Shown here in pieces: positions 2,384 through 50,816 of a stretch of DNA of 64,000 nt. A model generated the notes under the pieces. That model made no database searches. It was not told the origin of the DNA and worked only from the letters and a program-made list of their open reading frames with translations. Where the stretch lies: the IMG/VR virus record IMGVR_UViG_3300028888_000001; one strand, written 5' to 3'. Within the stretch, counting starts at the first letter, position 1; each line of letters starts with the position of its first letter. The DNA comes from a virus (Duplodnaviria > Caudoviricetes). Made by a program: the position numbers and the translations under genes.

Positions 2384-3035
2384 GTCTTATTCAGATTATA
2401 ATGTAAAGCTTTTAAACCACTCTCAATTAAACTGCACTGAGAATGGTGATTACATTGGATTCTTTTGTCCAAAGTGTTTTGAGCCGTTTGTTAAAAGATA
2501 TAGCACTAAAAAAGAATATTTTTGTGATGATGAATTTACAATAAATGAAACTTATACTTTAGTATGTCCTAAGTGTAAACATGCTTGGACACAGAATTGG
2601 TTTCTTGATCCTAATATAACAAAAACAATAGCCCTTTTAAACAAGAAAGGCTACATCACAGAGTTTTGTTGTGAAGGTCATTATGCCAAAGATGATGATG
2701 GAGACGAATATTTAGCATCCGTTCCATATATTCTATTTGCTGTAAACTATACTTGGATGGCGCCTATGGCACCATATCCATGGTATTGGTCATTAATGCT
2801 TAATAGTGCATGCAATAGCTTTAGCTTTTATAATAAAATACAAAGATCAGAACTCAAAGCTAATTTAGAAGCATTTGATGCTACAAAACAGTATGCGCTG
2901 GATGTTATACATGAATGGACTACAAATTTACCAGACTTGAGCTGTAATAAGCGTAGTATGAAAGCGATTAAAGAATCAATACAGTATAGAAAAGACATGG
3001 AAACAGCATTATATAATAATATTATAGTTTTATAA
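2376..3035 (+). CDS. Zn-ribbon-containing hypothetical protein
   Basis: CPKC...CPKC pair and a GYITEFCCEGH motif; overlaps the previous stop codon. Confidence 0.65.
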   Translation: MYKSYSDYNVKLLNHSQLNCTENGDYIGFFCPKCFEPFVKRYSTKKEYFCDDEFTINETYTLVCPKCKHAWTQNWFLDPNITKTIALLNKKGYITEFCCEGHYAKDDDGDEYLASVPYILFAVNYTWMAPMAPYPWYWSLMLNSACNSFSFYNKIQRSELKANLEAFDATKQYALDVIHEWTTNLPDLSCNKRSMKAIKESIQYRKDMETALYNNIIVL

Positions 3036-3121
3036 ACCCGTTAACCAAATAATAATAGAGGGCTCCATCAAGAGCCCTCGATAAATACATTTATTATTTT
3101 TTATGAGAGGAGAAATATAGA

Positions 3122-4075
3122 ATGCAAGAAGTAGTAGATCATTATAATGGAATGGAGCGTACACTTCAATTTGAAAATTTTGATATCGAAACTAAACTTG
3201 GTAAAACCATTTTCCATGCTGACGATACTATCGGTGACCATTATCATAAAGAAATGCTTAGAAGAATTTTTAAATATGGGCATTTGGATCATAACCCAAG
3301 ACCTCATTATTCAGATGGAACCCCTGCGCACACTATCTCTATTAATGGAAGTATGCATCAGTACGATTTATCAAAAAATCAATTGCCTATAATTACTTTA
3401 CGACCTATAGCAATTAAATCTGCTATAGGGGAAATGCTTTGGATTTATCAAGATCAATCTAATGATCTTGATTTGCTCAAAGAGAAATATAATGTTACTT
3501 GGTGGGATTCTTGGGACATTGGAAATAGAACCATTGGCCAGGTTTATGGAGCAACTGTAAAGAGATACAATCTTGTTAATAATCTTATTAAAGATATTAA
3601 AGAAAATCCAGATGGTAGAAGACATATTATGTCTTTATGGCAAGTAAAAGATTTTGAAGAACCGCATGGTTTAAAGCCTTGTGCGTTTTTAACTGTTTGG
3701 AATGTACATCATGCTGAAGATGGTAATGATTATTTAGACATGTCTCTAAATATCAGATCAAGTGATTACAGCGTTGCTGGAGTTTTGAACCAGATGCAGT
3801 ATGTTGTTCTTCAACATCTTATTGCTAGAGAGTGTGGTTATAAACCAGGATTATTTACTTGCTTTTTTAGCAATATACAAATCTATGATAGGCATATTGA
3901 CAATGCTATAGAGCTCTGTTCTCGTAATGGTATTCAGTGTATGCCTAAATTATGGATTAACCCAGAAAAAACTAATTTTTATGATTTCACCATAGACGAT
4001 ATTAAATTAGTTGATTACCCAAGAGAAGAGATTAGTAGGAAGAACCCACAATTAAAATTCGATTTGGGTATCTAA
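3122..4075 (+). CDS. thyA: Thymidylate synthase
   Basis: EMLW, YG, RRHIMSLW, catalytic PCAF, RSSD, N(QMQY), QIYDRH motifs. The Asn at the specificity position indicates a dUMP substrate. Confidence 0.95.
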   Translation: MQEVVDHYNGMERTLQFENFDIETKLGKTIFHADDTIGDHYHKEMLRRIFKYGHLDHNPRPHYSDGTPAHTISINGSMHQYDLSKNQLPIITLRPIAIKSAIGEMLWIYQDQSNDLDLLKEKYNVTWWDSWDIGNRTIGQVYGATVKRYNLVNNLIKDIKENPDGRRHIMSLWQVKDFEEPHGLKPCAFLTVWNVHHAEDGNDYLDMSLNIRSSDYSVAGVLNQMQYVVLQHLIARECGYKPGLFTCFFSNIQIYDRHIDNAIELCSRNGIQCMPKLWINPEKTNFYDFTIDDIKLVDYPREEISRKNPQLKFDLGI

Positions 4076-47886: not shown

Positions 47887-47993
47887 TTTAAATTCCTCCT
47901 AAAAATAAAACTTGGTGATGATATTTATATTAAATATATGATAGATACAGTGTGTGTCTCACTGTATCTATCATATACAGAATATCGAATTAT

Positions 47994-48223
47994 TTATTGC
48001 ACTGCCATACAAGCATTTATTTCATCTGCTTCTGCTTGCGTGTATTTGCACATGGATTTCATGCCGTTTGCATTAATAAGCATATCTCTGGATGGTAACA
48101 TGTCAGAATTACATTGTCCGTCATTCCTAGAGATATACAGCTGTACAGGATTAAATATCTCATTAGTCAAATTAATGAAATCTTTATTATACAAATACAT
48201 GATATTGAGGGTGTCTCCGTCAA
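47994..48223 (-). CDS. rpoC: RNAP beta'-N subunit, exon 2 (FDGDTLNIMYLYNK...)
   Basis: Begins TT GAC GGA GAC ACC right after the intron's terminal G, completing D-F-D-G-D. Confidence 0.92.
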
Positions 48224-48625
48224 CGTACCCCTATACACTACGAAAGTAATGTAGATTGATTAGATCCTAGGTGGCTTAGACTATATCTAAATCCACTGCT
48301 TAATAAAAGCGTTGGGATAATTAGCGCTTCGATTTAAACGGACTTATTTGCTGCAATGCCGTACTATAGTAATCACTCTATAGCTCTACTCCCATTTAGG
48401 GATAGTCGTTGAACCTTCTATACTGTTACAGTATAGCTTGGCTGCTGATTGCATATTGTTAGCAGGCTTTAGCACCATTATTATACAATGGCTTTTATTT
48501 CAGCATGGCCCAATCTTTAACTTGTTTCTGTCTTTCGACTCCTTATAGGCATAAAGATATTAATACATCCCAGCAATTCACTAATTTTTAACGCTCCTAT
48601 TCCTAGAAACGTGATCCTGATTTTG
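48224..48625 (-). mobile_element. Group I self-splicing intron, 402 nt, no ORF
   Basis: P AAUUGCUGGGA (48568-78), Q AAUCAGCAGCC (48440-50), R GUUCAACGACUA (48403-14), S AGAUAUAGUC (48279-88). P1 UGAUU|C:GGAUCA has U.G at the 5' splice site; P3, P7 and P10 pair; terminal G present. Confidence 0.95.
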
Positions 48626-49952
48626 AATCAGCAGCAAGCGGCTTTAATATCAATAGAGATATACTCATAGTGTAGTTCATGTTAATCCCTATACATCTAC
48701 ACCGGAGAATACCACCATACGATATGGTCGGATTGCGGTTAATTAGAACGGGGAGTCCCCCGCTATCTTTGATTAAGCCGTCTATAATATCATATATTGT
48801 TTTGTCGTATCCATTAATCTGACACTTATACCATCTCTTATATGCTATAGAGTAAGAGATATTTTGTGTCTTAACGAGTATATTTATAATAACTTGCTGT
48901 AATAATTCCATTAAACACTGAAATGGAAGTTTTATCTCATCACAAAATAAATATGGATCTTGTCGTATCACGCTCCTACTAGTAAATGAATATCTACCAC
49001 CTATACTTGCACGAATATCACCTTTCTTTTTGGCCATGATAGATTTCAATTCTTCATATATTGCATTATACTGGAATTGAATATCGTATAAGTATTGGAC
49101 TTTTCCTTTAAGCTTTTGATCCATTCTAAGTTTATCTTGATTAACCTTATAAACTAGAGTGGATAACATCTGATAGTTCTCATTACAAGACTGATATTTC
49201 AAAGATCCATTATCCAGTACAGACGGTCTCAACAATGCAGAGAATACCGGTATACTATGAGTAAATGTGATTTTCTCATTTTCTATAAGATCATCATAGT
49301 AGATTTTCTTAGCTGGATATTTAGCATAATAATAGTCTAGTATCTCTCGATACCGCTCTTTAAATGCTAGTATACCGATACCCTTGAAAGGTTCGTCTTT
49401 CTTATTAGATACTACCTCTATATATTTACCATTGGAGTCTACTGTTATCTCTGGCTCTATAATGCGGTTTAATCTCGCTGCACCGATAAAGCCTTCAAGA
49501 GTTCTATATATATTTGGATGGATAATCCAGTATTTATCTTTTAGTACTAGCCATCCAAATATAGAAACGTCATCGTCATAATACTTGACTACAGTACCAC
49601 ATGCTGGACATATCTCTCCATGCATTATAGATCCTCTAGTCATTCCACATTTACAGCGATATTTACCAGAGAAAGAATCTATATCCGATATAGTAGATCC
49701 AAATCTCTGACTGAATATGCCATTTTGATATTTGATATCATTCTTAATTCCCTTTGGGGCAGAGATGATAAAATTAGGGCCAGATTTAAGATCATCAATT
49801 CTTGTCTGGTCCATATCTAGCCTGACTAACCGTGTGCTATATGTATACTTATCTGAATGGGGATATGTATACGTTGTTTTGACATTAAGCGTTCCTGGAA
49901 CTGCTGTAGTTCCAGCTCTTACATTTGGTGTCGTTTTTATTTTTGTTGCCAT
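48626..49952 (-). CDS. rpoC: Multisubunit RNA polymerase beta' N-terminal subunit (probably the non-virion RNAP), exon 1
   Basis: GIFSQRFG, CKCG...CPAC Zn finger, KKGDIR..GGRYSFTSRSVI, NRNPTI, PLAAD|. The spliced product is 518 aa. Confidence 0.92.
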
Positions 49953-50035
49953 CTTTTCCTCCTTAAAGATTTTTAAAAACTACAGATAATACCAAATTTC
50001 TATCTTGAATCTAATACTACCTGTAGCCTAAATAT

Positions 50036-50045
50036 ATAATATATT
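50036..50045 (-). promoter_or_regulatory. Putative early promoter of the RNAP gene
   Basis: aatatattat on the minus strand, followed by a leader stem-loop. Confidence 0.55.
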
Positions 50046-50087
50046 ATCATTTTTATCTTTAGGATAAAAAAATAATCTATAATAATA

Positions 50088-50693
50088 TTATGACTCTTCT
50101 TTAAGAATCTCAAGATGCCTGAATTTCGATAGCTTCTTAAGAGAACTTATATCTGTTCTTCTAATGACATATTCTGGAGCTTGCACATCTATCAAAAACT
50201 CTTTAACAGAATCATATGCTGTTATCTCACCAGTGGTGTTATTTCTAACTTTAATAGATTTTGTAGAATTTTTGGCATAAACACCATTATCTCTCTGGAA
50301 CTTAATATTATCGTCTTTTGTGAGCTGTAATAGATTATCTATAGAATTGTTCCTGGAGTCTAAATCTAAATGAGCAATGCAACAATTAGTATCTAATGGT
50401 TGATTACCCCATGCTGAATAGACTAGCCTAGAAACTGGATAATGTCTCTTTTGAGCATCAGAAATTCTTACTGCTCCATATTTGTCAATCTCAGGTTTGA
50501 TAATAGAGAATCTATTTGGGCTTCTAGTATTCTCATCAAAAATAATTTTAGCAATCTCTCCATTCTTAGATGAATAATAATCGTCTACAATTGTTTCTCT
50601 AAATTCTCTTCCTGTACCATCTGTGTATGATTTTGTAAAATCATAAATTTCTGTTGGCGTTGGCTCCCCTAAAATGTCGTTAATACAAGACAT
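50088..50693 (-). CDS. Free-standing HNH homing endonuclease (I-HmuI-like: HNH plus NUMOD1-like domain)
   Basis: SKNGEI...DKYG...VSRLVYSAW...HLDLDSRNNSIDNLLQLTKDDN, then TTGEITAYDSVKE. Confidence 0.8.
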   Translation of the reverse strand: MSCINDILGEPTPTEIYDFTKSYTDGTGREFRETIVDDYYSSKNGEIAKIIFDENTRSPNRFSIIKPEIDKYGAVRISDAQKRHYPVSRLVYSAWGNQPLDTNCCIAHLDLDSRNNSIDNLLQLTKDDNIKFQRDNGVYAKNSTKSIKVRNNTTGEITAYDSVKEFLIDVQAPEYVIRRTDISSLKKLSKFRHLEILKEES

Positions 50694-50774
50694 TTTCTGC
50701 TCCTCCTTAAATACATAAGTAATTTATATTTATGTATATGGGTGTGTATTATTTTACCATGAGAGTTATACAAA

Positions 50775-50816
50775 AAATTTAAAGCCATTAAGCGTTAACC
50801 TAATGGCTTTAAATTT
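50775..50816 (-). terminator. Hairpin/terminator
   Basis: aaatttaaagccatta-N10-taatggctttaaattt with a T tail on the minus strand. Confidence 0.65.

Follow-up and report, generated by a model that had tools for sequence, protein, structure and literature searches.

The window analyzed here is a 64,000-nucleotide stretch of viral DNA (Duplodnaviria; Caudoviricetes; IMG/VR record IMGVR_UViG_3300028888_000001), representing the reverse strand of bases 201541-265540 in a 313,331-bp record that has terminal repeats and is judged complete. It holds a gene for the beta'-N subunit of an RNA polymerase (RNAP), interrupted within the codons of its catalytic DFDGD motif by a group I intron without an open reading frame (ORF), and a free-standing gene for an HNH endonuclease of the I-HmuI type, located 1.46 kb upstream of the point of intron insertion (Table 1). 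In intron-less relatives, the two RNAP exons correspond to one uninterrupted frame. Compared with the beta'-N subunits g274 of Yersinia phage phiR1-37 and gp270 of the Bacillus phages AR9 and PBS1, the RNAP fragment shows 29-32% identity. By homology, the interrupted gene corresponds to that for AR9 gp270, a non-virion RNAP subunit, and this level of identity places the phage as an uncultured, distant AR9-like jumbo phage.

Table 1. Features at the HNH-RNAP locus, in window coordinates
Feature	Position	Strand	Basis or detail
RNAP beta'-N exon 1	48626..49952	-	Ends ...LKPLAAD + base 1 of Phe codon (gct gct gat t)
RNAP beta'-N exon 2	47994..48223	-	Phe codon bases 2-3, DGDTLNIM..., 75 aa, stop
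Group I intron, ORF-less, 402 nt	48224..48625	-	Exon-junction restoration and RF00028 match
Free-standing I-HmuI-like HNH endonuclease gene, 201 aa	50088..50693	-	HNH_3 match, family profile, structural model
Hairpin with T-run, terminator-like	50772..50816	-	Directly past the upstream 111-aa gene, before the HNH gene
Late-type near-match CACA-N6-TA	50746-50735	-	One mismatch to AR9 late consensus
Late-type near-match TACA-N6-TA	50736-50725	-	Conserved in five lineages; overlaps CACA-N6-TA
AR9-type early-promoter-like motif ATAATATATTATA	50034..50047	-	HNH-RNAP spacer; conserved in 6/6 lineages with the HNH gene

The product of the HNH gene barely reaches the Pfam HNH_3 threshold (24.9 bits, with a cut-off of 24.8), and a search of the PDB with the single sequence missed I-HmuI. 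A profile built from 34 family sequences recovered it (PDB 1U3E; E=2.8e-29, residues 2-163 of 174), and an AlphaFold model (predicted local distance difference test score, pLDDT, 86.8) has 1u3e_M as its sole Foldseek match at E<0.001. Together, profile and model delineate the domain order of I-HmuI: an N-terminal beta domain, a beta-beta-alpha-Me core, and a C-terminal helical DNA-binding domain. A first-pass annotation, made from the DNA letters alone, had read this gene as a free-standing I-HmuI-like HNH and had proposed a structural model as a check; the family profile, the predicted fold, and the Foldseek match all bear the reading out. The 313-kb genome contains no second gene of the I-HmuI-like kind.

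The alignment with I-HmuI pairs S88 with H56, A107 with D74, H108 with H75, N116 with N83, and N129 with N96. In I-HmuI, Shen et al. (2004) are said to have assigned D74 and N96 as the metal-ligand Asp and Asn, H75 as the general base, and N83 as a structural Asn. The catalytic set of the window protein is therefore incomplete, with H108, N116, and N129 present and Ala at the position of D74. Both departures from the usual motifs that the first-pass annotation had pointed out, VSRLV for VHRLV and AH for DH, are real.

Relatives of the HNH protein were gathered from the protein database and by contig look-ups. The protein database yielded eight close homologues (62-87% identity), which with the window protein form a clade of nine; IMG/VR scans with the HNH gene and with the upstream 359-aa gene returned no matches. 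SRLV, H108, N116, and N120 are invariant in all nine members. Position 107 is Ala in eight and Ile in the ninth (P0009), and the wider family mostly has Asp, Asn, or Glu there. N129 is likewise kept in eight of nine and is replaced by Leu in P0006, the protein of the L027-L029 lineage. Pairwise synonymous divergence (dS) is saturated (1.08-1.79, or beyond computing), nonsynonymous divergence (dN) is 0.10-0.39, and dN/dS is at most 0.15-0.29. Because the Ser and Ala substitutions are clade-wide, dS is saturated, and dN/dS is low, the gene is, to judge from these alignments, not decaying and under purifying selection. This contradicts an earlier caveat that the two motif changes might signal a decaying nuclease: S88 is fixed across the clade, and A107 is present in all but one member.

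The P0006 protein (L027:4117-4725), with N129L, is identical on six contigs, and the RNAP gene of its lineage is intron-free. Two contigs of this lineage, from one project, show an apparent frameshift in the RNAP gene near residue 74-82 (L027:5039-5054 and L028:3143-3155), which could reflect misassembly or a genuine split of the gene; L029, with the same HNH protein, has an RNAP gene unbroken at these residues.

The HNH gene stands directly 5' of the RNAP beta'-N gene on every contig that reaches far enough, in at least five lineages, and the genes upstream of the pair fall in three unrelated sets. Retention of the pair behind three unrelated contexts makes a functional tie between the HNH and the RNAP gene plausible. 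Its placement, intergenic and adjoining a conserved gene, is that expected of a mobE-type endonuclease. In the HNH tree, the free-standing proteins form one well-supported clade whose internal order agrees with that of the RNAP tree, pointing to a single acquisition followed by co-divergence. Lineage L033 is nested within the HNH-carrying clade on the RNAP tree (Shimodaira-Hasegawa-like approximate likelihood-ratio test, SH-aLRT, 92) and has no HNH gene in the 594 nt of upstream sequence available, which suggests one loss in that line.

The nearest outgroup proteins (32-40% identity) are intron-encoded, sit between NrdD fragments, and have the canonical VHRLV and IDH; one nrdD-intron HNH is 39% identical to the window protein end to end. 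The HNH protein encoded in the DFDGD intron of L033 matches at the motif only (E=0.02), and gp271 of AR9 (184 aa) matches over the HNH core only (32% over 105 aa, E=7e-5). Since the nrdD-intron HNHs are the nearest relatives and the DFDGD-intron HNHs are remote, the free-standing gene does not appear to be an escapee from the intron that it adjoins. One nrdD-intron homologue has an in-frame TAA in L019 (G003:C1:217387-217914) and is intact in L018 (G004); the G003 copy looks like an endonuclease caught degenerating.

The intron splits the Phe codon of the DFDGD motif. Its excision rejoins gat t/tt gac gga gac and restores the frame (AADFDGDTLNI), the 5' exon ends in U, and the last intron base is G, all hallmarks of group I introns. 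The Rfam model RF00028 covers it over its full length (model positions 1-253) at 43.2 bits (E=5e-9), under the gathering score of 50; paralogues elsewhere in the same genome score 50-52 bits. Genome-wide, RF00028 matches at seven places in total, and several of these lack both an ORF and an adjoining endonuclease gene. Pairing of exon GAUU with the internal guide GAUC (48616-48613) leaves U.G at the splice site, and P1 shows a compensatory change from GAUU/GAUC in the window phage to GACU/GGUC in L021 and L033. In the window intron, P6 closes into a hairpin (48418-48436) with a stem nearly the same as that of the homologous AR9 intron, which is annotated through a joined coding sequence. Just as the first-pass annotation had stated, the intron has no endonuclease ORF, its longest stop-to-stop frame being 37 aa. 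These features are best read as a predicted splicing-competent, endonuclease-less member of a known group I intron family.

A DNA similarity search against known phages found no relatives; its single match was to ~74 nt of the intron (48386-48459), 82% identical to an unannotated stretch of the crAss-like phage cr118_1 (MT774379, 82147-82221), which is probably itself an unannotated group I intron.

Homologous introns occur in L021, L033, L016/17, and AR9, and those of the window phage, L021, and L033 have in common both the insertion point (+0) and the core sequence. The intron in AR9 gp270 lies in the same motif (DYDG/D), 8 nt downstream, and encodes gp271 (HNH_3/NUMOD4). L033 and L035, whose RNAP is 71-74% identical to that of the window phage, carry 1.35-kb introns at +0 and +5, respectively, that encode HNH proteins of 297 and 308 aa; the former scores with HNH_3 and NUMOD4, and the latter shows the same motifs by eye. 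The HNH ORF of L033 and AR9 occupies the P6 loop, exactly where the window intron has its closed hairpin. With a homologous ORF-less intron at +5 in L016/L017 and an ORF-less intron at +11 in L036, four insertion points (+0, +5, +8, and +11) fall within 12 nt at the catalytic DFDGD codons. Further introns of the same gene lie near residues 259, 310-320, and 405 among relatives. The RNAP beta'-N gene is thus an intron hot-spot (relatives L016/17, L021, and L031-L037), with four introns in L036 alone. The ORF-less state is that of an endonuclease-free ancestor or of a form that lost its endonuclease, and no special explanation is needed for it. Rfam missed the DFD/GD intron of L016/L017 and the nrdD HNH-intron of G003/G004, which were recognized instead by exon junctions and alignment.

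The RNAP genes of L033 and L035 are near-identical and carry their related HNH-bearing introns at different insertion points (2637-3988 at +0 and 2497-3864 at +5), an arrangement that resembles, by analogy, the intron-endonuclease competition of SPO1 and SP82.

The distribution of the free-standing HNH gene was compared with that of the introns across about 11 lineages, five with the gene (HNH+) and six without (HNH-). The DFDGD intron is present in two of the five HNH+ lineages (Table 2) and in three of the six HNH- lineages (L033, L036, and L016/17, as opposed to L011, L014, and L015), showing no association. Among the HNH+ genomes, the two main ORF-less introns are seen in all four possible combinations, and G001 (96% complete) has no HNH homologue anywhere in its genome. 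An HNH homologue ~3 kb upstream of the intron-bearing RNAP gene in G003/G004 was rejected as a case of co-occurrence because it sits inside an nrdD intron.

Table 2. Introns in the RNAP beta'-N gene of the HNH+ lineages
Lineage	Intron at ~310	Intron at ~405	DFDGD intron
Window phage	no	no	yes
L021	yes	no	yes
L031	yes	no	no
L032	no	yes	no
L027	no	no	no

The HNH+ lineages without the DFDGD intron have an intact DFDGD site. The uninterrupted sites of L027 and L031 are the same as the spliced junction of the window phage at GACGGAGACACCCTCAA, with two synonymous differences upstream, and that of L032 is near-identical to the spliced junction. The HNH proteins of L031 and L032 have the same catalytic residues as the window protein, and that of L027 additionally lacks N129. 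Synonymous differences at the DFDGD site that would separate HNH+ from HNH- genomes were sought, and none were found. Across these lineages, the HNH gene neither requires the DFDGD intron nor is required by it.

In AR9, late promoters follow the consensus AACA-N6-TA/G and early promoters AAATATATATTAT-N6-G (PMC5312081). Genome-wide, AACA-N6-T[AG] occurs upstream of 45/225 crude gene calls compared with 8/189 coding controls, and ATATATTAT upstream of 25/225 compared with 2/189. Strong enrichment of AR9-like early (TTATATATTATA) and late (AACA-N6-TA/G) motifs upstream of genes suggests that both AR9-style promoter types are conserved in this distant relative, and a sigma-70 promoter scan gave no excess over chance (24 sites, 22.5 expected). 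At the HNH gene, the late-type motif that the first-pass annotation had proposed holds as a near-match with one mismatch; the motif that is conserved is the TACA-N6-TA overlapping it. The terminator-like hairpin upstream was missed by a simple terminator scan because its stem is AT-rich; in relatives, a hairpin is kept at this position with a different sequence. Upstream of the HNH gene, a GGTAAAA...TAC element is conserved in relatives; since it does not recur in the genome, it was not called a general promoter. From these motifs, the HNH gene looks like its own transcription unit, probably late, and the RNAP gene like an early gene that has an early promoter of its own.

We propose that two separate selfish-element histories meet here at one essential gene. 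In the first, an intron family colonizes the beta'-N gene of AR9-like jumbo phages at its catalytic DFDGD codons, and the members in AR9, L033, and L035 bring their own HNH. In the second, the free-standing HNH would have been acquired once, from the nrdD-intron HNH lineage, by the common ancestor of a subclade of these phages; vertical descent together with the RNAP gene would have followed, under purifying selection, with the general-base His and both Asn kept and the Asp ligand lost. The protein could then serve as a late-expressed, mobE-like, site-specific nickase acting on the RNAP-gene region of co-infecting relatives that lack it. Repair would copy the HNH gene and its flanking markers, and downstream ORF-less introns could be carried along in trans. 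That the HNH still nicks DNA, with a target in or near the RNAP gene of genomes without it, and so represents a counterpart of mobE, is our preferred reading, inferred at slightly under even odds (about 0.45).

A close known parallel in layout is phage T4, in which the free-standing HNH endonuclease mobE, upstream of nrdB, nicks the 5' region of T2 nrdB and mobilizes the nrdB intron in trans (Wilson & Edgell 2009, PMC2790892). As with mobE and the nrdB intron, whose I-TevIII is defunct (PMC2790892), a free-standing HNH gene here lies 5' of an essential intron-containing gene, and the intron is without a working endonuclease. Unlike the window gene, which follows a hairpin and has a promoter-like motif, mobE is promoterless and co-transcribed with nrdA (PMC2790892). 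The window HNH also differs in having no Asp metal ligand.

Several observations weigh against the mobE-like reading. The residue equivalent to the metal-binding Asp of I-HmuI is Ala in the clade and Ile in one member, and the N129L change in P0006, with its ORF intact, is more in keeping with a non-catalytic role. A syntenic HNH-empty site was not found in any close relative, which leaves mobility of the HNH gene putative. Finally, the congruence of the HNH and RNAP trees argues for long residence, not recent homing.

A bolder extension of the mobE-like reading is correspondingly tentative, and we regard it as rather unlikely in full. Here, the entire clade without the Asp ligand would still consist of active nickases, serving as late-expressed weapons and drivers fixed at the 5' end of the gene for the non-virion RNAP beta' subunit and cutting that gene in HNH-less co-infecting relatives. 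Repeated repair would then explain the hot-spot, with up to four introns in one gene and at least five sites, and ORF-less introns would be shuffled in trans.

The main rival, also on the unlikely side in our estimate, is that the protein has been domesticated as a non-cutting DNA-binding protein of the I-HmuI type, for example one that binds near the RNAP early promoter. The loss of the D74 equivalent, the replacement of the H56 equivalent by Ser throughout the clade, and the persistence of P0006 as an intact protein, identical on all its contigs despite N129L, would all be accommodated by such a role, as would long vertical inheritance under purifying selection at a fixed position beside a conserved promoter. 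However, no clade member deviates at the general-base His or the structural Asn, and only one lineage has replaced the helix Asn even though dS is saturated, a pattern that would not be expected if catalysis were dispensable. Moreover, a lone Asn serves as metal ligand in some His-Me nucleases, namely I-PpoI and the Serratia nuclease, and we know of no regulator of the I-HmuI-like kind.

The consequences differ between the two. An active HNH would give jumbo phages a natural equivalent of T4 mobE, maintaining and moving endonuclease-less introns in an essential transcription gene, and a natural test of an I-HmuI-type active site without the Asp ligand. An inactive one would mean that the endonuclease fold has been kept for another job. 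In either case, the comparative set offers all combinations of HNH and intron, together with the clustered insertion points at the DFDGD codons.

The first-pass annotation had proposed a different link between the two elements, in which the HNH would cut the uninterrupted DFDGD site and the intron would shield the genome that carries the HNH. In its full form, the cut would fall in competitor or intron-less genomes, and HNH and intron would spread jointly through collaborative homing, as for F-CphI and psbA. The short distance between the HNH gene and the intron insertion site is in keeping with this model, as is the homing of I-HmuI-type HNHs to the same DFDGD motif in AR9, L033, and L035 and to the catalytic Asp motif of the RpoB-like virion RNAP gene in PhiPA3 (PMC11620839). 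Furthermore, the ORF-less introns of the RNAP gene vary among close relatives, so something mobilizes or removes them. Against this stand L031, L032, and L027, relatives in which the HNH coexists with a nearly unchanged, uninterrupted site and no DFDGD intron, the outcome that the annotation itself had named as incompatible with its proposal. The co-occurrence that it had suggested examining is absent, and the HNH is closer to an nrdD-intron HNH than to the DFDGD-intron HNHs of L033 and AR9. Neither a target at the insertion site disrupted by the intron nor co-occurrence, the marks of collaborative homing, is seen at this locus. In its own phage, I-HmuI nicks alleles with the intron as well as alleles without it (PMC3017599, PMC3428280). 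Because I-HmuI tolerates such nicking, an intact site in an HNH+ genome is strong, not absolute, evidence against the model. We thus consider it improbable: intron-based immunity is not supported, and the HNH gene and the intron are neighbors, not a proven pair.

About equally improbable is that the HNH is a weapon or leftover without a link to the RNAP gene, still recognizing the ancestral nrdD site or another locus in rivals, with its adjacency to the RNAP gene incidental. Its nearest relatives are indeed nrdD-intron endonucleases, and PhiPA3 gp210 shows that such enzymes can serve as interference weapons. However, the adjacency has been kept in at least five lineages despite the three upstream contexts, and the phage's own nrdD has no interruption at the homologous CCR motif and hence poses the same problem of self-cutting. 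A decaying pseudo-endonuclease without function, to which the change of two family-conserved residues could point, is scarcely credible given an ORF intact in every lineage seen, saturated dS with dN/dS at most 0.29, and substitutions common to the clade.

Other described systems each match the locus in part. The window HNH has the same fold and domain order as I-HmuI of SPO1, and the intron that encodes AR9 gp271 is homologous to the window intron and interrupts the orthologous gene within the same DFDGD motif. Unlike both enzymes, the window HNH lies outside the intron and has Ser for H56 and Ala for D74, and the AR9 intron is inserted 8 nt further downstream. PhiPA3 gp210 nicks the RNAP gene of a rival beside the catalytic Asp codons and confers a competitive advantage (Birkholz et al. 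2024, PMC11620839); like the window protein, it is an I-HmuI-like HNH tied to an intron-containing RNAP gene of a jumbo phage. However, gp210 is intron-encoded and targets the RpoB-like virion RNAP gene of a chimallivirus (PMC11620839), whereas the window HNH is free-standing and lies by the gene for a beta'-like non-virion subunit. The F-CphI/psbA system likewise has a free-standing endonuclease adjoining a gene with an ORF-less group I intron (PMC6083498). F-CphI differs in its Endo VII-type active site and in cutting the intron insertion site (PMC6083498), a target against which the comparative data argue here.

Three further features of the genome lie beside the locus or outside the window. 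Just past the RNAP gene stop, a near-perfect inverted repeat (47935-47977), which also gives a spurious mir-4703 match (E=0.04), is probably a terminator-like hairpin. The nrdD gene (G000:C1:300984-304799, outside the window) is split by two introns, the second of which carries a 352-aa HNH of a different type, with weak HNH_2/HNH matches and helix-turn-helix domains. Also outside the window, a topoisomerase (gyrB-like) gene (G000:C1:171000-176900) contains multiple introns; one intron ORF has 262 aa, and a second (249 + 154 aa) is broken by an in-frame stop at 174736-174738. Neither of these two ORFs has a Pfam match. Both have a ...YSP(E/T)TCMF... motif in common with the intron ORF of L036 (5056-6066), and the ORFs with this motif may represent an undescribed family of homing endonucleases.

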